Under the pieces are notes generated by a model, which worked only from the letters and a program-made list of their open reading frames with translations, ran no database searches and was not told where the DNA came from. Positions 27-8,930 of a stretch of 64,000 bases of DNA are shown in pieces (position 1 is the stretch's first letter; the number at the start of each line of letters is the position of its first letter). The DNA is taken from NCBI GenBank assembly GCA_963765765.1, contig CAVXYC010000028.1:128001-192000 (forward strand). The letters run 5' to 3'. A program made the translations under genes and the position numbers. The DNA comes from an uncultured Chloroflexia bacterium. GTDB taxonomy: Bacteria; Chloroflexota; UBA6077; JACCZL01.

Positions 27-665
27 ATGAGCATCTCCACGGTGATGGTGGACGCAGTCGATGCGCGTCGCGCACGGTTGTTCGAGCTTGTCGGCGATCA
101 TCCCGACTTCCGTGTTGTCGGTGAAGCGCGGACCGTGCGCGAAGCCGTCGTGGTTCTGTCGCGCCTCCAGCCAGACTTGATAATCGCCGTCAGCGACACG
201 CTTGAAGTGGATAGCTGCCCAGGTCCAATGAGCCTCCTGCAAGCCACGGAACATTCCACTTTTATATTCATCGGCGACTGTCCGGTGCCGACCTTCAAGT
301 ATCTGACCACCAACGTCTTCCTGTTGGACCTTGCCGAATTGAATTCTGCTGTCCCGGGACTGCTCCAACACATCCGTCTGCGCAGTGGAAGCTCGGGCCA
401 GATTGCGGCCAGGGTTCTGGCCCGAGCGCGATCGTATCGCGCCGCGGGTAGATCAATGCCTTCGCCACGGCAGATGGACGTTCTTCGGTATCTCGCGGAC
501 GGGCACTCACATCGAGCGATCGCCGATGCCCTCGGTATCTCTCAAGCCACGGTAGATCGGCACGTCGCGGATCTCTACGTGAAGCTGGACGTAGCGTCCC
601 GCGAACAGGCCATAGCCCGAGCTGCAGAGCTAGCCTGGCTACCGCCGAGGGGGCAGCTAGGCTAG
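27..665 (+). CDS. NarL/LuxR-family response regulator with atypical receiver domain
   Basis: C-terminal LuxR HTH (SPRQMDVLRYLADGHSHRAIADALGISQATVDRHV..LYVKLDV.SR); N-terminal receiver-like VVGEA...PDLII segment. Confidence 0.8.
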   Translation: MSISTVMVDAVDARRARLFELVGDHPDFRVVGEARTVREAVVVLSRLQPDLIIAVSDTLEVDSCPGPMSLLQATEHSTFIFIGDCPVPTFKYLTTNVFLLDLAELNSAVPGLLQHIRLRSGSSGQIAARVLARARSYRAAGRSMPSPRQMDVLRYLADGHSHRAIADALGISQATVDRHVADLYVKLDVASREQAIARAAELAWLPPRGQLG

Positions 666-960: not shown

Positions 961-1002
961 GCCGGGTTGCGGACAATGCGGTCGGGCAGAGGGGAGTTCA
1001 GA

Positions 1003-2055
1003 GTGACGACAGTGATGCGAGTGAGCGATGTTGGCGATCTGGTCCAGGAATGGGTCAACGAGCACGGCCAGCATCTTCCCGGATTCCGCGGAGCGTATCT
1101 TTTCGGTAGCCTCGCGACGATGCCGGACGAGGCCATGTTCGCTACGTATCGCGACGTCGATCTCATTGTGGTGCTCGACTCGGGGACCAAGCAGACTGAC
1201 GACAACCTCGAAATGCCCTACAAAGGCCTCATGCTCGAGGTCGGCTTCATCGGCCTCGACGAGCACCGGGATGCAGAGGCCATTCTCGCTCGGCCGGATC
1301 GCGCCGGGAATCTGGCGCGTACCCGGATTCTCGCCGATCCGATCGGATTCCTCGCGCCGCTCCAACGGGAGGTTGCCCGGCGATATGCCGAGCGGCGGTG
1401 GGTGGAGGCACGCTGCGAAGCCGAGAAGCGAGATGCCCGGAAAGCCCTGGAATCCATGGGCGAGGCGCCCGCCCCGTATCCGCGTTTGTTCGCGCTCGTC
1501 GGCACGATCTTGGGACTGGCCGGGTTGCTGGCCGTGGCCCGCCTCGAGATGCCCACAAGCCGACGCGCGCTCAGCGGGATGCAAAGCGCGCTAGAGTCGG
1601 AAGGACGGCCTGACCTGTACGCCGGGATGCTGGACGTCTGCGGCGTCGCCGACCTCACGTTGCGGGAGGTCCAGGGCTACCACGCCGAGATGCTGCGGGC
1701 GTTCGATCGTGCCGTCGAAGTCAGGCGCACATTTGTCCCGTATAGCTTCAAGGTGCAACCGCATCTTCGCCCGTATGTCGATGAGGCGATCGCCGAGCTG
1801 ATCACCGAGGGACACCATCGTGAGGCCGCGTTCTACCTCACGCTCCCGTACAGCACGGTTAACGCGATTCTCCAGAACGACGCTTCAGAGCAGGAGAAGC
1901 TGGCCTACCAGGTCGGCTTCGACGGCCTCCTAGACGCACTGGACTTGAACCGCCCACGCGACTGGGACGGTCGGCTGCGGCAAGCCCGCACGCTCTTCGC
2001 CGAGTTGACGCGGCTGGCAGATGCCTGCGCGTCCCGGACCAGCGAAAGTCTGTGA
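1003..2055 (+). CDS. Pol-beta-superfamily nucleotidyltransferase-domain protein
   Basis: YLFGS...DVD motif followed by a helical C-terminal domain; GGGGAG RBS at 991-996 before GTG 1003 (ATG 1015 is an alternative start). Confidence 0.65.
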   Translation: MTTVMRVSDVGDLVQEWVNEHGQHLPGFRGAYLFGSLATMPDEAMFATYRDVDLIVVLDSGTKQTDDNLEMPYKGLMLEVGFIGLDEHRDAEAILARPDRAGNLARTRILADPIGFLAPLQREVARRYAERRWVEARCEAEKRDARKALESMGEAPAPYPRLFALVGTILGLAGLLAVARLEMPTSRRALSGMQSALESEGRPDLYAGMLDVCGVADLTLREVQGYHAEMLRAFDRAVEVRRTFVPYSFKVQPHLRPYVDEAIAELITEGHHREAAFYLTLPYSTVNAILQNDASEQEKLAYQVGFDGLLDALDLNRPRDWDGRLRQARTLFAELTRLADACASRTSESL

Positions 2056-2136
2056 GACGATCGGTTCACCCGAGAAAGTATTCCTCTACATCCGATAAGC
2101 GTCACCGATGAGTGGAGGTGTCGAATGTCCGAGTGC

Positions 2137-3099
2137 TCACGCTACTGAGCGAGCCGCCTGCTTTAACAGTCTCGCTTCACGCTTGACTCGCTCCCCCTCC
2201 TGGAGCGTAAACCAGAGGTAGAACGCGAAGTAGCTGCGCCAGCCGGCCCACGAGTCAGCAATCGTGCGGACTTCGGCTTCGCTGGCCAATCGGCCCATGC
2301 CGTACCGCTGACCCACAATGCGGCGAAGACCGCCATCACCAGCGGGAATGACGTCAGGATGACCGATCCCACGCATGAGCACGTATTCGGCCGTCCACCG
2401 GCCGATTCCGGTGAGCAGCTCCAATCGGTCTAGCGCCGCCTGGGCTGGGATGGTGAAAAGCGCGTCGAGATCGAGTCGCCCTTCGACGATCTCATATGCC
2501 AGATTGAGAATGTAGCGCGATTTCTGTCGGCTGAACTGAATCTCAGAAAGCTCGGCTTCAGTGATATCGATCACGCGCTCCGGTGTCGGGAAAAGCATCC
2601 ATGACTCTCCGTCGATCTTGAACGATGTTCCGAAGCGCTCAACGAAGGCCCGCTTGCACTTGGCGGCGAAGATGACGTTGATCTGCTGGCCGATGATGGC
2701 CCAGGTGATCGTCTCAAAGATGTCGGGCAATAGCACTGGACGAACACCGCGGAAGCGCGTCAGCAGCTCCTGTCCAAACTCGTCCTTACGAGGTAGTGAG
2801 TCGAGCAGTGGACTGACGTCAACCGCAGTGGCGAAGACTCGCTGCACGATTGGTCGCATCATGCCTTCCGCGTCCCTTGGAAGCGACTCGCCCTGCAACG
2901 TTACGTACAGATCGGTTGGATTTGCCTCTGTGGATTCCACGCTCATGAGCGCTGGCTTCCCCTCGAGTGCAATGGGACGATGGTACGAGCGCTCGCCGAG
3001 TCGCTCGACGATTCGAGCAGGGGATCCGCGAAGATACCTCAGAGCAAGGTCAAATGAGAATGGTTGAGTTGTCGGGACGGTGAATGAAACAGAGGGCAT
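2137..3099 (-). CDS. alkA: DNA-3-methyladenine glycosylase II (AlkA family)
   Basis: AlkA N-terminal segment (PFSFDLALRYL), FETITWAIIGQQI, FPTPE, HhH LTGIGRWTAEY, catalytic Asp in PAGD, W..WRSY. Confidence 0.9.
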   Translation of the reverse strand: MPSVSFTVPTTQPFSFDLALRYLRGSPARIVERLGERSYHRPIALEGKPALMSVESTEANPTDLYVTLQGESLPRDAEGMMRPIVQRVFATAVDVSPLLDSLPRKDEFGQELLTRFRGVRPVLLPDIFETITWAIIGQQINVIFAAKCKRAFVERFGTSFKIDGESWMLFPTPERVIDITEAELSEIQFSRQKSRYILNLAYEIVEGRLDLDALFTIPAQAALDRLELLTGIGRWTAEYVLMRGIGHPDVIPAGDGGLRRIVGQRYGMGRLASEAEVRTIADSWAGWRSYFAFYLWFTLQEGERVKREARLLKQAARSVA

Positions 3100-3100
3100 A

Positions 3101-3820
3101 TCAGGCAGGACGACAGAGTTTACACGCGCGGTATCCCGCGGCCACAGCCGCGGCAGGCGTCGGAAAGGTCACCTCATTCCCACGCTTGACGCGCTTCCCG
3201 GCGTAGCAGAACGGCAGACAGAAGATACGCGTTGAGATACAGGCGTTGAAGCGCATTCCCTGCCTTGCGTTTCGAGCAAGCTGGTCCACGTCTACACCCT
3301 CGTGGGCCAGTATTTCTCGCTTCTTCTCCACTCCGCCCGCACCGTAGTTCACCAACGTGTAGTCAGTACGGACGGCACGATGGCATGGCACCAGCACCGG
3401 AATCGGATTGGTTGCCATGGCATCGCCCACTGCCCGCGCGGCGAGAGGGGCGCCGATTGCTCTGGCAATCCAGGAGTAGGAGCGAATCTCCCCACGGCGC
3501 ACTGCCATGACTTCGCGGAGCGCCTTTTGCTGGAGAGGCGAGACTGTGCTGAGATCGACCGCGCCTCTGAACCGTCCTTTGCCATTCAAGAAGTCTTTGA
3601 CGGATCGAGAAAGCGGAGCTGGCACGTCGTCCGATTGGGTCGGCCGTTGTCCCAGGAAACCTTCACATTTCTCTTCGAAGACTTCGTACTCGACGTCGAG
3701 GTCCGAAAATCGGACCGTTCGCCCTGAATACGCGACCCAGAGACGTCCATAAGTCGAATCAAAGGGTGTGTAATTGAGGCAATCGTAGGATCGCGAGGCG
3801 CGTTTACTTCGAGCTGTCAT
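3101..3820 (-). CDS. ogt: O6-alkylguanine-DNA alkyltransferase with C-terminal Ada Zn-binding (methylphosphotriester) module
   Basis: ARAVG..MATNPIPVLVPCHR active site; C-terminal IFCLPFC...AGYRACKLCRP; start taken at ATG 3820 after a GGGGG RBS. Confidence 0.88.
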   Translation of the reverse strand: MTARSKRASRSYDCLNYTPFDSTYGRLWVAYSGRTVRFSDLDVEYEVFEEKCEGFLGQRPTQSDDVPAPLSRSVKDFLNGKGRFRGAVDLSTVSPLQQKALREVMAVRRGEIRSYSWIARAIGAPLAARAVGDAMATNPIPVLVPCHRAVRTDYTLVNYGAGGVEKKREILAHEGVDVDQLARNARQGMRFNACISTRIFCLPFCYAGKRVKRGNEVTFPTPAAAVAAGYRACKLCRPA

Positions 3821-3884
3821 CGGAATCCCCCAAAGCAACTTGTATCGCCCTCCGCCGGCCATCCGTAGAGCTCCGGCACTCTCC

Positions 3885-4784
3885 CTACACCGCCACCGCC
3901 AGAGGTCGGCAGTGTTTACACGGCCGATATCCGGCGGCGCTCGCGGCGCGCTCGTTTTCAAACGGAACTTGATGATTGGCCTGGATTCGACGCGCATCTC
4001 GGCAGGTTGGATAGCAATAGATATGCGTCGTATCGCTTCCAAGGTATCTGACGCGACGATGCGCCAGCTCGTCAATGGCATCGGGGGAGGCACCTTCTCG
4101 CTGGAGCAGTGCGCGCTTGACGCCGCTGCCATAGGCGTAGTTTCCGACCCCGCCAGTAGAGGGGACAACACGATGGCAGGGCAGGATCAGCGGTACGGGA
4201 TTGCGATTCATGATATTTCCCACGGCCCGCACCGCGCGCGGACTGCCTGCTTCAGCGGCTAGCCACGCGTACGGCCTGACTTCTCCCACAGGAATCGTCC
4301 TCATTTTCTCTAACACCGATCGCTCAAACATTGGCAAGCCATCGAGGTCCACGGGCACGTCCTTTGACCAGCGTCCCTCAGCGGCTTCCTTCACGGCATG
4401 GCCGAGCCTGGGCGGCACATCGGCCAGCGTGGCTTCGCGTCCGAGCCGGCGTCGGTATGCTGCCTGCGCATCCATTGGCTGGGCCGGCAGGAGCGAGACA
4501 AATGTCAAACCTCGCTCGTTGAAACCTACCCACACCTGGCCCAACACAGTTTCAACGGCACCGATCCGATCGCCCAGCGCGGTGATCACCGCACGACAGA
4601 TTGAGGCCGGAGCTGACGAAACATGCTTCAAGAGCGAGCCCGACATGCGCTTCAGCTCATCAAGCTCCGCACGACAGCTCTGGCAGCTAGCGATGTGATG
4701 CTCGATTGCGTGCTGCTCACTGGTAGTCAGCTCAGATGTCCGGAAAGCATCGAGCAATACGGCGATCTGTTCACACTTCAACAC
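3885..4784 (-). CDS. Fusion: zf-HC2/ZAS anti-sigma zinc finger + O6-alkylguanine alkyltransferase + Ada Zn module
   Basis: N-terminal C..(LLDAF..EL)..HIASCQSC (HxxxCxxC); central RAVGNIMNRNPVPLILPCHRVV; C-terminal IYCYPTC...AGYRPCKHCRP; start overlaps the end of the sigma gene by 14 nt. Confidence 0.88.
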   Translation of the reverse strand: MLKCEQIAVLLDAFRTSELTTSEQHAIEHHIASCQSCRAELDELKRMSGSLLKHVSSAPASICRAVITALGDRIGAVETVLGQVWVGFNERGLTFVSLLPAQPMDAQAAYRRRLGREATLADVPPRLGHAVKEAAEGRWSKDVPVDLDGLPMFERSVLEKMRTIPVGEVRPYAWLAAEAGSPRAVRAVGNIMNRNPVPLILPCHRVVPSTGGVGNYAYGSGVKRALLQREGASPDAIDELAHRRVRYLGSDTTHIYCYPTCRDARRIQANHQVPFENERAASAAGYRPCKHCRPLAVAV

Positions 4785-5334
4785 TCTCGTCCTCCGAACA
4801 AAGCTGTCTCAAACTGGCGAGCGCTCGAAACACCTTCCCGCGGGCAGCCGCCTCGGTTCCACCCTTCACCGCGGCGATCTCCGCATAAGTGAGATCGTGA
4901 ACAAAGCGCAGCTCTAGCCACTCACGAACGGACCAATCCAACCGTTCAAGTCCACGATGCAACTTCTCATCCCCCGCATCCAGCTCTGGTCCTCCATATG
5001 TCGACGGGTCAGCGATTTGATGGCCATCATCGAGAAGATCAGTGATTGGTCGGCTCTTACGGGCCCGCAGGCGGTTGAGCGCGAGGTTTCGGGCGATTCT
5101 CAGAAGCCACGGGCGAACCTGCAACGTCTCAACTTGCTCATCTGTGTACTGCGTACGAACCGCTCGAACGGCTCGAATGAAGGTGTCTTGAGCCACCTCC
5201 TCGGCATCGCGGGAGTCACGAACCATCGAGAGCGCATAGGAATAGATCCCGTTCTGATGGGACACCACCAGTTCTTCGATAGCCCGTTCATCTCCGCGAT
5301 GAACGCCGATGAGCAGGTCTTCTACTACTGTCAT
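4771..5334 (-). CDS. ECF-type RNA polymerase sigma factor
   Basis: Region 2 DAEEVAQDTFIRA...WLLRIARNLALN; region 4 LRFVHDLTYAEIA....EAAARGKVFRALASLR; start uncertain (5334-5391). Confidence 0.9.
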   Translation of the reverse strand: MTVVEDLLIGVHRGDERAIEELVVSHQNGIYSYALSMVRDSRDAEEVAQDTFIRAVRAVRTQYTDEQVETLQVRPWLLRIARNLALNRLRARKSRPITDLLDDGHQIADPSTYGGPELDAGDEKLHRGLERLDWSVREWLELRFVHDLTYAEIAAVKGGTEAAARGKVFRALASLRQLCSEDESVEV

Positions 5335-5377
5335 CGTCGCCAAGCTCACTCCCGTTGCGCGGTCTGCTACGCTCAAT

Positions 5378-5404
5378 AAACACTTAGACATGGCCCCGCG
5401 TTCG
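5378..5404 (-). promoter_or_regulatory. Candidate ECF-type promoter (CGAAC-N17-TGTT)
   Basis: Minus strand reads cgaac gcggggccatgtctaag tgtt just upstream of the sigma gene; only a generic match to the ECF AAC/GTT pattern. Confidence 0.25.
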
Positions 5405-5438
5405 TGGCACCAGTCATGGGCGAGCGGCGGAGCACATT

Positions 5439-6023
5439 GTGAGCGATGAAATAGCCGGCGTGCCTATTCTCAATATCATCGGCGCGTCCGTGGCACTGGG
5501 TCCGCTGCGCAGGGATTTACTACCGCACTACGAGCGATGGATGAACGACTTTGAGGTCACCAAGACCCTCAGCGTCGGCTGGCTGGCGATGACTTCCGAG
5601 AGTGAGTCCGCCTGGTATGAGCACGCTTCCCGGGCGTCCGACCAGGTCAGCTTCACGGTCTACGAGCGGCCATCGCTTCGCCCCATCGGCAATGCCGGAC
5701 TTACCGAGATCGACTTCCGCCACGGCACGGCCGAATTCGGAATCATGATTGGTGAGAAGGACTCCTGGGGAAAGGGCTACGGGACGGAAGTGACGCGACT
5801 CGTTGTGGACTACGCGTTCTCGGGGCTGGGCTTACACAACGTCATGCTCCGCTGCTACGCGACAAATGAGGCTGGTATCCGAGCCTATACCAAGGCGGGC
5901 TTCAAGCTAATCGGACGGCGGCGCGAGTCTCGCCGCCGTGGCGGTGGCTACGTCGACACCATCCTCATGGATTGCCTGGCATCAGATATTGAGCCAACGC
6001 TACTCAGGAACATGCTCGATTAA
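5439..6023 (+). CDS. RimJ/RimL-family GNAT N-acetyltransferase
   Basis: AEFGIMIGEKDSWGKGYGTE, N..GIRAYTKAGF. Confidence 0.85.
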   Translation: MSDEIAGVPILNIIGASVALGPLRRDLLPHYERWMNDFEVTKTLSVGWLAMTSESESAWYEHASRASDQVSFTVYERPSLRPIGNAGLTEIDFRHGTAEFGIMIGEKDSWGKGYGTEVTRLVVDYAFSGLGLHNVMLRCYATNEAGIRAYTKAGFKLIGRRRESRRRGGGYVDTILMDCLASDIEPTLLRNMLD

Positions 6024-6216
6024 CGGCACATAGGCCGGCATTTGAGAGCCAGTCGCTTCCTGAATGCTGGCCTCGTATCCCTTGGCCACAACCGCGAGGT
6101 CAGGGAGTCTGGTTAGCGCTCGCACGCCAGCTCGAGCCCACAGCGCGTGCCTGGACGAGCGCCCAGCTCCGGTCGATAGCATGAGCCCGATGTCCCGTCA
6201 GGATTGCGATGCGAAG

Positions 6217-6471
6217 TCAGTCCTCAAAAAAGATCGGGCGACTAGATTTAACACGCGGACTCTCGGCCGACCACACGCCGATCGCGCTGACACTCAGTAC
6301 ACGAGAACGCAGCTGGATTTGCGGAGCTCGACGCATGTTAAGGATGAGCGACTGTCCGTTGGTGAAGTTTGTCGTAGCCACATTGAGCTGCACCGAAGCA
6401 GCCTGAGTAGACACGGGTGCATCCAGGCGGGTGGCTCGTGCCTCCTCGGCACGGCCAGCTTGTGAGTCCAT
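6217..6471 (-). CDS. Short hypothetical protein or gene remnant
   Basis: ATG-started ORF filling a gap; no confident motif. Confidence 0.25.
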   Translation of the reverse strand: MDSQAGRAEEARATRLDAPVSTQAASVQLNVATTNFTNGQSLILNMRRAPQIQLRSRVLSVSAIGVWSAESPRVKSSRPIFFED

Positions 6472-6707
6472 GGATAATAGAGATGCAGTATGGCGCTCAC
6501 GACCAGAGCTGTTTGGATGAGAGTGCGGCCATATGCCGAAGTCCAGTGCCCTTTTGAAGTGGTTGAACCGGGCTTTCACGTCGCGCTCCGATAACCACGA
6601 TCGGCTCGCGGTCAGACGAGACAACGAGCGCTCAGAGCGGCGCGGGATGGGATTGTCTACTTCGCATCCGGATAGACAAGCCAGCACGCACCATCACAAC
6701 AGGAGCA

Positions 6708-7661
6708 ATGATGCAGACCCACATATCCCCAGACCCAGAGCTCGTGCCCCTTGGGCTCACGGGCATCAACGTCCCGCCGTTGGGCCTTGGCACGTGGCAA
6801 TGGGGGGATCGCGTGTGGTGGCAGTATGGAGACCGATACAACGACGATGACATCCGGGCCGCTTACAACACCGCGGTGGCACGTGGAATTCGGCTCTTCG
6901 ACTCGGCCGAGATCTATGGGATGGGCAAGTCCGAAAAGCTGCTTGGCGAGCTCAGCAACGGAGATCCGTCGATCGTCGTTGCCACGAAGTTTTTCCCGTT
7001 CCCATGGAGATTGCGAGTAACAGATGTTGAGCGAGCCTTACGCGGAAGCCTTCGGCGATTAATAGATCGCCCAGTGGATCTCTATCAGGTTCACTGGCCA
7101 CTGCCACCGATTCCATTGGAGAGGTGGATGGACGGCCTGGCACGAACGGTTGAGAAGGGCCTCGCCCGGAGCGTGGGCGTCTCCAATTTCAACCAGCGCC
7201 AGATGGCTCGGGCGGTTCAGGCGCTCCACGCGCGAGGTATCCCGTTAGCCTCCAATCAGGTCGCGTTCAGCCTGCTGAATCGATCGCCGGAGCGAGACGG
7301 CGTTCTGGCATCCTGCCTGGCGCTAAACGTTTCCCTGATCGCCTACAGTCCGCTTGCCATGGGCATGCTCAGCGGCAAGTACACGGAAAAGAATCCGCCT
7401 CCAGGGATTCGCGGCCGAAGATACCCGCCTAGCCGACTTCGAGCGATGGGGCCGCTCATCACCACGCTGCGTCGCATCGGCGAGCATCGCGAGCGCACGC
7501 CGTCTCAGGTAGCACTAAATTGGGTGATCTGCAAAGGAGCCATTCCGATACCTGGAGCGAAGAACGCACTACAGGCCGAAGAAAACGCCGGTGCGCTGGG
7601 TTGGAGGCTCACGGCCGATGAAGTCGCTGAACTAGATGAGGTGAGCTTCAGGGTCTCGTAG
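6708..7661 (+). CDS. Aldo/keto reductase
   Basis: GLGTWQWG, FDSAEIYG, DLYQVHWP, VGVSNF, AYSPLAMG, IPIPGAK. Confidence 0.92.
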   Translation: MMQTHISPDPELVPLGLTGINVPPLGLGTWQWGDRVWWQYGDRYNDDDIRAAYNTAVARGIRLFDSAEIYGMGKSEKLLGELSNGDPSIVVATKFFPFPWRLRVTDVERALRGSLRRLIDRPVDLYQVHWPLPPIPLERWMDGLARTVEKGLARSVGVSNFNQRQMARAVQALHARGIPLASNQVAFSLLNRSPERDGVLASCLALNVSLIAYSPLAMGMLSGKYTEKNPPPGIRGRRYPPSRLRAMGPLITTLRRIGEHRERTPSQVALNWVICKGAIPIPGAKNALQAEENAGALGWRLTADEVAELDEVSFRVS

Positions 7662-7773: not shown

Positions 7774-8724
7774 CTACTGTGGGTTTCCGGCCTTTAGCCA
7801 CTCCGCGTAATCTTTCACGGCGTCGTTCAAACTCCATGCGGGCTTGTAGCCCGTGTCAGCCGTGGTGTTGTCCAGTGCGAGGTAAGGATTTTCTTTGTGT
7901 CCGGGACCTTTGCCGGGATTGAGTTGAACATTGAAGCCCGGGACTGCGGCTTGCACGGCGCTCAGCAGCTCACCCCAGGTCGTGGCGCGACCACCGCCGA
8001 CGTTGTAGATACGGCGCGGCAGCGAGCCGGATAAATGAACCTTCTGAATGCCTTGCGCGCAATCTTTGACGTAGCACAGATCACCCGCGTCCTCGGCATA
8101 CGGCACACCGCCGCGGCCGCCGGCGAGATTGGGATCGGTGCCCTTTACCGCGGCATGTGTGAGGCGGCTCGGAAGGTTGGCCATGCTGTGATACAGCGGG
8201 CCCCAGATCCCGGCGATCCGCATCATCACCACGTCCATGCCCGCTCGATCCGCGTAGTGCAAGCCGAGAATCTCGAAGGATTTCTTGAACGCTTCCGTGG
8301 GATTACCCGACTGCATGGGGAGGCGATCATCCTCGGTGTAGGGGCCTTTCTCCAATCCTGAGTAAACAGCCGTGGAGCTCGCAACAGAGAGGCGCTTTAC
8401 TTTCAGATCCTCCGCGACCTGGAGGATGTTGAGGAGGCCATCCATGTTCGTCTTGAAGTCTTCCGCCGGCGTCAGCGCACCGAGGCCGGGCACGGCTAGA
8501 TGGACGATGCCATCGACGTTGTGCTTCTTACCCACTTCGACGAGCGCATTGCGATCCACGACGTCGACGACCTCTACCTTGGCACGATTCCCAAGGTATG
8601 GCTTGATGAAGTCCGGCTCTCGTCGCGTGTGCCACATGGTGAGCACTACATCTTCGCCCGCATCGAGAATGGCCTTGGCAGTGTGCAGGCCAATGAACCC
8701 CATGCCACCTGTAATAAGCTGCAT
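7774..8724 (-). CDS. NAD-dependent epimerase/dehydratase (extended SDR)
   Basis: LITGGMGFIG Rossmann motif, SSTAVY, YVKD.A, IYNVGGG; GGGAG RBS. Confidence 0.85.
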   Translation of the reverse strand: MQLITGGMGFIGLHTAKAILDAGEDVVLTMWHTRREPDFIKPYLGNRAKVEVVDVVDRNALVEVGKKHNVDGIVHLAVPGLGALTPAEDFKTNMDGLLNILQVAEDLKVKRLSVASSTAVYSGLEKGPYTEDDRLPMQSGNPTEAFKKSFEILGLHYADRAGMDVVMMRIAGIWGPLYHSMANLPSRLTHAAVKGTDPNLAGGRGGVPYAEDAGDLCYVKDCAQGIQKVHLSGSLPRRIYNVGGGRATTWGELLSAVQAAVPGFNVQLNPGKGPGHKENPYLALDNTTADTGYKPAWSLNDAVKDYAEWLKAGNPQ

Positions 8725-8930
8725 CCTTCTCCCTCCCAATGATCCGTCCCGAGAGCATTACACGATATGGGCGCTCTCGGGACAGAGCCCTAGACTACGG
8801 GCTATTGTGGGCAAGTGGTCCGCGAAGCGCAAGCATCAGTTTGACCGCCCAGACGAGCCGCAAAAGCTCGGATCGGCCCAACGTCAGACGCTAGAATATG
8901 CAAAGTGGTGTCTCAATCAGGTGACGCGTA

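Follow-up and report, generated by a model that had tools for sequence, protein, structure and literature searches.

Most of what is known of the adaptive response to DNA alkylation comes from E. coli-type systems, in which methylated Ada binds DNA via its AraC domain. Ogt and the C-terminal part of Ada (Ada-C) are stoichiometric suicide acceptors, the switch in E. coli is methylation of Cys38 of Ada, and alkylated human MGMT is destabilised and then degraded. In B. subtilis, AdaA joins an Ada-type zinc module (Ada-Zn) to an AraC-type helix-turn-helix (HTH). Among the soluble zinc-binding anti-sigma (ZAS) factors, ChrR senses through a cupin domain, which RsrA lacks, and the first Cys of RsrA is spaced 26 residues from its His. 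An association between extracytoplasmic function (ECF) sigma factors and alkyltransferases is already in print as ECF122: a 2022 review (PMC8999054), with reference to a 2021 reclassification, counts this group among the ECFs “without cognate anti-sigma factors,” names 6-O-methylguanine DNA methyltransferases as its conserved neighbours and assigns it an “unknown mechanism.” Here we analyse a stretch of 64,000 nucleotides from the genome of an uncultured Chloroflexia bacterium (contig CAVXYC010000028.1, positions 128,001 to 192,000), called the window below, in which an ECF sigma gene is followed by a gene for a fusion of a ZAS domain, an Ogt-type alkyltransferase and an Ada-type zinc module. 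Our results suggest that in this soil bacterium a sigma factor is paired with an anti-sigma/suicide-enzyme fusion in such a way that use of the enzyme switches on its own resupply.

The fusion gene (3885-4784, minus strand) encodes 299 amino acids (aa) from a GTG start and overlaps the stop codon of the sigma gene by 14 nt, an arrangement that suggests 1:1 co-translation of the two proteins. Residues 1-72 (4569-4784) form a predicted class I anti-sigma domain of the ZAS type, with four helices and the ligands C4, H30, C34, and C37. They are followed by the N- and C-domains of an Ogt/MGMT-type alkyltransferase (residues 73-233; 4086-4568), with the PCHR motif at residues 202-205 (4170-4181) and the codon of the predicted acceptor Cys203 at 4176-4178, and by an N-Ada-type zinc module (residues 245-294; 3903-4052), in which the codon of C257 lies at 4014-4016. 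The motifs named in the original prediction, which had been made from the letters of the window alone, were all recovered, i.e., HxxxCxxC (H30, C34, C37), PCHR, and CxPxC...CxxC (C257, C261, C289, C292), and C4 can be added to them as the upstream ZAS ligand, 26 residues ahead of H30. The profile searches are in line with this division of the protein. zf-HC2 (PF13490) matches residues 4-38 with 24.3 bits (cut-off 22.2), and the NCBIfam anti-sigma models match the N-terminus under their cut-offs (e.g., TIGR03988, RsrA, 17.1 bits versus 62.5). DNA_binding_1 (PF01035) matches residues 153-232 (1.1e-27, 96 bits), TIGR00589 scores 88.5 bits (cut-off 46.4), and Ada_Zn_binding (PF02805) matches residues 247-294 (3.8e-10, 40.1 bits versus a cut-off of 23). 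The score against the Ada equivalog NF011964, 95.8 bits, is below the cut-off of 345, and the protein is thus not an Ada of the E. coli type. In a residue alignment with residues 32-74 of 1adn, C257, C261, C289, and C292 correspond to Cys38, 42, 69, and 72 of E. coli Ada. An AlphaFold2 model of the fusion (114 sequences; mean predicted local distance difference test score, pLDDT, 93) places the N-terminal helices at residues 4-15, 21-33, 35-52, and 60-70, leading directly into the beta-sheet of the Ogt N-domain. Foldseek searches with this model retrieved human, E. coli Ada-C, M. tuberculosis, and archaeal alkyltransferases (TM(target) 0.72-0.84) as well as methylated N-Ada (1u8b; root mean square deviation 1.3 over 48 columns). 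The presence of a complete ZAS-type class I anti-sigma domain, with predicted zinc binding, is therefore supported in silico, and the fusion has an Ogt/MGMT alkyltransferase domain of which the predicted active site is intact.

The sigma gene itself (4771-5334, minus strand) encodes 187 aa from the ATG at 5334, within an open frame that extends to 5391 and also offers in-frame starts at 5349 (GTG) and 5343 (TTG). ATG 5334 is most likely the start, because it fits an alignment of 29 orthologues and because ATG 5391 falls within the spacer of the promoter described below and, consequently, cannot serve as start codon if that promoter is used. The protein matches Sigma70_r2 (3.5e-14, 52.8 bits), Sigma70_r4_2 (2.2e-8, 34 bits), and TIGR02937 (68.1 bits, cut-off 42.9). 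It consists of regions 2 and 4 only, the other sigma-region families being absent from the Pfam table, which makes it an ECF (group 4) sigma factor. A profile built from the family of this sigma factor detected 14 ECF-like sigma open reading frames (ORFs) in the genome. A second sigma/ZAS-type pair is found on contig 14 (L008).

The adjacency of the two genes is far above chance. In a survey of the phylum, 145 of 401 sampled genomes contain a match at E <= 1e-20, a tally that includes two genomes flagged as unpublished (G227 and G038), of which all other results are independent. An ECF sigma ORF lies directly upstream, on the same strand, in all of the 29 best other phylum genomes. The same holds for each of the 74 metagenome loci that extend far enough upstream of the Ogt homologue; the other six of the 80 loci end at the contig edge before a possible sigma gene, and in L085 the sigma was scored via an overlapping open frame. 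The original prediction presupposed a conserved neighbourhood of this kind, and for sigma and Ogt it clearly exists.

The fusion partner itself occurs in two forms. A large protein collection yielded 1349 relatives at E <= 0.001 among 7394 candidates. The best 120 homologues are nearly all ~295 aa long, with a query coverage of 98-100%; HxxxCxxC is present in the first 70 residues of 115 of the 117 full-length members among them, and PCHR and the four Ada cysteines are each found in 119 of the 120. Invariant in the 114-row alignment are D12, H30, C34, C37, P202-R205, C257, C261, C289, and C292, while C4 is more than 90% conserved. The named relatives are labelled Chloroflexota, Longimicrobiales, Acidobacteriota, and Thermoanaerobaculia; their sole annotation throughout is methylated-DNA-protein-cysteine methyltransferase. 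A single-protein scan of genome contigs returned one true orthologue locus (L001), and among the 29 phylum loci the zinc finger is confined to this same-genus genome (L010, the same record as L001). The other 28 carry a short form with an N-terminal extension of ~25-45 residues, which has a conserved L..L....AP..L...V motif and no zinc ligands. Of the 80 metagenome loci, 29 are ZAS-type and 47 short-type, the remaining four ending too early to be typed. The zinc-finger architecture that was originally predicted is, therefore, real for the window, the same-genus genome and 29 metagenome loci, but it is missing in most relatives. An hhalign comparison aligned the short form with the ZAS family (probability 100%) from window residue 44 to the end, and the short form therefore retains the end of helix 3 and the whole of helix 4. 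As judged from these alignments, the conserved core of the system is a sigma factor plus an Ogt-type protein with a putative sigma-contacting N-terminal segment. One short-type genome (L134) has the same gene order as the window, i.e., sigma, Ogt/Ada-Zn, second Ogt/Ada-Zn, and AlkA. In another locus (L133, G224:C1, ~4826-7393) the sigma gene is followed by an open frame of 855 aa, of which residues 213-441 match Ogt/Ada-Zn and which may represent a longer fusion; a second Ogt is located nearby on the opposite strand.

The original prediction proposed modelling of the sigma-ZAS pair, and the outcome is consistent with an anti-sigma role. We combined the sigma factor (54-row alignment) with residues 1-80 of the fusion (114-row alignment) in three runs with 3 controls. 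The ZAS domain was placed between sigma regions 2 and 4 with an interface score (ipSAE) of 0.78, compared with 0.00 for the best control, a mark that 58 of 80 solved complexes and 2 of 110 mismatched pairs attain. At least 86% of the contacts are shared among the three runs, and the pLDDT of the partner is at least 83. On the side of the sigma factor the predicted interface comprises residues 16-57 (region 2) and 116-175 (region 4), and on the side of the anti-sigma domain residues 8-18 and 44-70, with residues 58 and 66 of helix 4 contacting region 2. The model thus predicts that the ZAS domain clamps the co-transcribed sigma factor, and the segment 44-70 that contacts sigma in the model is the segment retained in the short form.

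A promoter is predicted directly upstream of the sigma gene. Its elements, recognised from the sequence and by comparison across loci, are a -35 element CGAAC (5400-5404, minus strand) and, 16 nt downstream of it, a -10 element GTGTTT (5378-5383, minus strand). The interval 5378-5404 had already been put forward as a candidate autoregulatory promoter, and, of the 22 usable ZAS-type metagenome loci, 21 indeed have CGAAC-N16-GTGTTT ahead of their sigma gene. For the short-type loci a promoter motif was found upstream of sigma in 36 of 39 usable cases. Controls with a slightly shorter regular expression gave hits in 8 of 72 reverse complements and in a mean of 1.2 of 72 shuffled sequences (maximum 4); the 72 loci comprise 25 ZAS-type and 47 short-type loci, including three with faulty upstream extraction. 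In the phylum loci, a strict AAC-17 nt-[GT]GTT pattern occurs upstream of sigma in 25 of 30 cases (reverse complement 5 of 30; shuffles mean 0.8, maximum 4). The -35 element differs between the two forms, being CGAACGAAA-like in the ZAS-type loci, the window included, and TGCAAC in the short-type loci. A role of 5378-5404 as a conserved, group-specific, and autoregulatory ECF promoter is, hence, supported in silico. A scan of 1800-5700 for sigma-70 promoters returned 0 sites, and the four terminator-like sites are no more than shuffles predict.

Genome-wide, GAAC-N16-GTGTT occurs at 19 sites on both strands of the 6.49-Mb assembly, and these include the operon promoter. A further copy is on contig 21 (L041:4680-5256), in an intergenic region past a hairpin and 15 nt ahead of the ATG of a standalone Ogt of 177 aa. 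For the two DNA_binding_1 genes outside the operon, the chance of finding one of the 19 sites in the 60 nt upstream of either gene is estimated to be on the order of 1e-4, and it is likely that the contig 21 site is a second promoter of the same sigma factor. Neither gene 3 of the operon, a second Ogt/Ada-Zn protein, nor the alkyltransferase-like (ATL-like) gene on contig 27 is located at one of the 19 strict motif sites. With a position weight matrix (PWM) for the ZAS-type promoter, the operon promoter, itself 1 of the 22 training sites, ranks first in the genome and the contig 21 ogt site 15th of 78 matches scoring at least 12. Most of the other matches are probably due to chance, so that we assign to the regulon just the two ogt-bearing units. 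A PWM for the short-type promoter was dropped for this purpose, since the -35 elements differ between the two groups; the window's own site scored low with it (7.7). The claim that the ECF sigma factor drives ogt and alkA, therefore, gains from the same motif ahead of a second ogt elsewhere in the genome, but for alkA it would apply to particular lineages only (see below). The full CGAAC-N16-GTGTTT occurs three times in the genome. One of these candidate sites is on contig 18 (L039:1222-2082), 14 nt ahead of a gene for a class I S-adenosylmethionine (SAM) methyltransferase of 271 aa (Methyltransf_11), which is unrelated to the methyltransferase downstream in L085 (E 0.18).

We propose, with a probability of about one in two, that the 299-aa fusion acts as a class I anti-sigma factor, soluble and zinc-binding, and that it senses through a pair of single-use alkyl acceptors, C203 in the Ogt part and the zinc-bound C257 in the N-Ada-like part. 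In the undamaged state, the N-terminal four-helix domain would hold the co-translated ECF sigma factor between regions 2 and 4. Irreversible transfer of an alkyl group from damaged DNA would inactivate the fusion as an anti-sigma factor, likely through destabilisation or proteolysis of the alkylated protein or through its retention on DNA, and one sigma would be freed per fusion molecule consumed. The freed sigma would then transcribe from CGAAC-N16-GTGTT promoters, i.e., those of its own operon and of the distant standalone ogt. The operon would deliver new sigma, new anti-sigma/Ogt, the second Ogt/Ada-Zn protein, which would be blind to sigma, and AlkA, and fresh unalkylated fusion would recapture sigma and so close the loop. 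Because this loop replaces exactly what was consumed, a core of two genes would suffice. We infer that alkyl transfer is the sigma-releasing signal, and that C203, perhaps also C257, is the cysteine responsible, from the destabilisation of alkylated alkyltransferases and from the role of Cys38 methylation as the switch of Ada. The persistence of the sigma linkage where the zinc finger is absent, in a short form that keeps sigma, Ogt, and the segment 44-70, suggests that the sensor common to both forms is the body of Ogt and not the zinc site. The original prediction, in which the repair enzyme is itself the anti-sigma factor, is thus plausible and partly supported: its anti-sigma half now has a recognisable ZAS domain and a modelled clamp, while the release of sigma by alkyl transfer is the half that we infer.

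A number of observations weigh against this proposal. The short form does without the three-helix bundle (helices 1-3), and five sigma-linked Ogt variants with a short extension have no Ada_Zn (L126-L130; genomes G073, G082, G315, G339, and G158), so that this module is not essential to the sigma linkage. Complexes of class I anti-sigma and sigma factors have already been solved, and the score of our model may, therefore, mirror likeness to these rather than binding by this particular copy. Furthermore, the outputs vary by lineage. AlkA is linked in 1 of the 80 metagenome loci, and the idea that AlkA and the second Ogt belong to the conserved core had to be given up: they are lineage-specific extras. 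In all eight ZAS-type loci tested (L052, L057, L060, L061, L062, L064, L070, and L082) the fusion gene is directly succeeded, in part with an overlap, by a gene for a SpoIIE/PP2C phosphatase (PF07228; ~213-266 aa, E 1e-39 to 1e-44), which also occurs in L087 (716-1438), a locus cut at the contig end and left untyped; the window has none. This phosphatase may be an extra control layer. The short-type Ogt/Ada-Zn is followed by an EamA transporter gene (PF00892) in 8 of 10 loci tested (L086, L096, L103, L104, L105, L109, L118, and L123), the other two having a SAM methyltransferase (L085) and a protein without Pfam match (L106). Since the downstream outputs differ between lineages, the physiological signal may be broader than DNA alkylation alone.

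Three other explanations have to be weighed against these data. The zinc finger of the ZAS domain could be the sensor, its zinc-bound cysteines being hit by electrophiles or oxidants as in RsrA/sigma-R, with the Ogt/Ada-Zn part travelling along as a repair enzyme. The zinc thiolates are a conceivable electrophile target, for which the Ogt part would be cargo: all four ligands (C4, H30, C34, and C37) are present with the Cys-His spacing of 26 residues known from RsrA, and the match to TIGR03988, though weak (17.1 bits against a cut-off of 62.5), is to RsrA. Moreover, a paper that classifies class I anti-sigma factors (PMC7406223) links soluble zinc-binding anti-sigma factors to intracellular redox sensing. 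Yet the pairing of sigma and Ogt exists without any zinc ligands in 28 of 29 phylum loci and in 47 metagenome loci, the motif is partly lost in two full-length homologues, and a zinc-finger sensor gives no account of the invariable retention of Ogt and PCHR, and in most cases of the Ada cysteines, beside sigma. We consider it, therefore, unlikely.

Somewhat less probable still is that the Ogt-type protein has no regulatory role and its gene is simply the foremost target, and the first, in an operon that sigma autoregulates, with sigma controlled in another way and the ZAS domain being a constitutive or vestigial sigma-binding tag. The printed listing of ECF122 as lacking cognate anti-sigma factors (PMC8999054) speaks for this and against our proposal, as does the consideration that in sigma-first operons the next gene may simply be the main target. 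The absence of helices 1-3 from the short forms would fit as well, and the PP2C phosphatase of the ZAS-type loci could form the separate control layer that such a scheme calls for. However, the window protein passes the zf-HC2 cut-off and is modelled as clamping both sigma domains, the short forms keep exactly the sigma-contacting segment with its conserved AP...L...V motif, and the start/stop overlap of the two genes suggests 1:1 co-translation. The fusion might also act as a sigma-bound co-activator, in which methylation of C257 gives the Ada-like module an affinity for DNA that aids recruitment of sigma and RNA polymerase. This builds on the alignment of the Ada-Zn module with N-Ada, Cys38 included, and on the contacts of methyl-Ada of E. 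coli with RNA polymerase and the need for sigma in Ada-activated transcription, as described in a 2014 review (PMC4437013). It seems very improbable, since the predicted interface coincides with those surfaces of sigma that are covered by class I anti-sigma domains, the Pfam matches include no AraC-type or other DNA-reading helix, and sigma-linked variants exist that have no Ada_Zn at all.

The window's sigma and fusion genes are the first two of four closely spaced genes on the minus strand between 2137 and 5391. The four-gene operon (2137-5334) that was originally described from the letters alone is confirmed, including the sigma/fusion overlap of 14 nt and the gap of 1 nt before AlkA, and so is the statement that an AraC HTH is absent: none of the four proteins matches the AraC/HTH_18 family in Pfam. 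Gene 3 (3101-3820, minus strand; 239 aa from ATG 3820, with an alternative ATG at 3861) encodes the second Ogt/Ada-Zn protein, which has the domains DNA_binding_1 and Ada_Zn_binding (Pfam) and no anti-sigma part. It is 34% identical to residues 78-298 of the fusion and has an orthologue in the same-genus genome. The fourth gene (2137-3099, minus strand; 320 aa), starting 1 nt past the stop of gene 3, encodes an AlkA-like 3-methyladenine DNA glycosylase with a match to HhH-GPD (1e-16, 61.6 bits versus a cut-off of 26.2), AlkA_N under its cut-off (17.2 bits versus 26), and a match to NF007641 that spans residues 6-299, also under the cut-off (96 bits versus 229). In the assembly, which is 92% complete, we found only two Ada_Zn domains, both within the operon, and neither a classical Ada or HTH regulator with Ada_Zn nor AlkB (PF13532). 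There are four DNA_binding_1 genes in the genome. The ATL-like one on contig 27 (L139:531-1760) is small, has an ambiguous start, and lies directly upstream of a gene of 299 aa for what we take, from its N-terminal sequence, to be an Fpg/Nei-like glycosylase.

The flanking genes at 5439-6023 (plus strand), 6708-7661 (plus), 7774-8739 (minus), and 27-665 (plus) have counterparts of 34-83% identity, arranged alike, in the same-genus genome (L001), and for this reason the operon appears to reside in a syntenic chromosomal region without an obvious mobile element. The divergent flanking gene encodes a GNAT acetyltransferase (Pfam); the remaining ones are presumably aldo-keto-reductase-like, epimerase-like, and LuxR-type response-regulator-like. 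The ORF of 362 aa at 967-2055 (plus strand) has a weak match, below threshold, to PF20697 (“nucleotidyltransferase in conflict systems”; 16 bits versus a cut-off of 24).

In a more general form, which we put forward tentatively, the system would be a consumption-coupled switch, in which every irreversible alkyl transfer takes away one molecule of inhibitor and thus liberates one of sigma, so that the cell counts lesions stoichiometrically and resupplies exactly the enzyme used; several soil phyla would have it, in one of two grades, with the full ZAS domain or with the minimal helix 4. If the proposed mechanism is right, Chloroflexota and the relatives named Acidobacteriota and Gemmatimonadota would possess a widespread alternative wiring of the adaptive response, in which irreversible alkylation of a cysteine is read out by a sigma/anti-sigma pair, and the covalent, stoichiometric transfer of DNA damage would be a new input among those by which anti-sigma factors are inactivated. 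Should sigma binding have been preserved in the minimal form, an ECF group that is listed as having no anti-sigma factor would have a hidden one in Ogt. A testable mechanism is offered for a group that has been catalogued without one. The two-gene core with its defined promoter could possibly also serve as an orthogonal switch triggered by alkylation or benzylguanine.

The catalogued ECF group nearest to the window sigma in gene neighbourhood, ECF122, shares with it a conserved Ogt-type neighbour, and it is by this neighbourhood that the two are likened. In contrast to the description of ECF122 in PMC8999054, a ZAS domain is recognisable in the neighbour of the window sigma. We also computed a quick maximum-likelihood tree (rows with <130 profile positions excluded and 2 duplicates dropped, from 115 to 113). 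In it the 26 ZAS-linked sigmas fall into a single branch (SH-aLRT 100) and the 74 short-linked ones into a second (97), so that the window sigma is in a clade separate from the sigmas with neighbours that lack the zinc finger; the -35 elements differ as well (CGAAC versus TGCAAC). The tree does not order the two branches relative to one another or to the genome's 13 other ECF-like sigmas. A search with the short-type protein for named actinobacterial neighbours of ECF122 gave only relatives labelled Chloroflexota among the best 120 matches. The main text and preprint of the 2021 reclassification (PMC7826278) do not mention methylguanine, methyltransferase, DNA repair, or alkyl, and ECF122 is absent from the main text, as is DNA damage from the preprint; in the paper that classifies class I anti-sigma factors (PMC7406223) the terms “methyltransferase” and “DNA_binding_1” are both absent, and the “sigma” passages in the Ada review (PMC4437013) concern only the RNA polymerase sigma and sigma-S. 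In the open-access full-text literature we found no study of an anti-sigma/ECF system joined to an alkyltransferase or Ada module. Nor did we find in print the proposed identity of the Ogt protein as an anti-sigma factor, the promoter code, or the occurrence of the module in two grades.

With RsrA/sigma-R, ChrR/sigma-E, and other soluble ZAS factors, the window system has in common the HxxxCxxC motif with its upstream Cys, the modelled four-helix domain, the gene overlap with sigma, the putatively autoregulated promoter, and the predicted sandwich between sigma regions 2 and 4. It is distinct from RsrA and ChrR in its C-terminal partner, which is a DNA-alkyltransferase followed by an Ada zinc module. 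As in B. subtilis, with AdaA/AdaB and a standalone Ogt, alkyl-acceptor work is split over several proteins, of which gene 3 and the contig 21 ogt would be plain repair enzymes; unlike the case of AdaA, an HTH regulator with Ada_Zn is not apparent in the 92% complete genome of the window. The likeness to E. coli Ada extends to the two predicted suicide alkyl acceptors in one protein, i.e., an N-Ada-type zinc site and an Ogt-type PCHR, to the organisation in an operon that contains its own gene and a link to alkA, and to the proposed logic of damage-dependent self-induction. However, the fusion has the reversed order, with Ogt before Ada-Zn, and has no AraC HTH, and its output would proceed via the release of a dedicated ECF sigma factor, as proposed here, instead of via DNA binding by the methylated protein.

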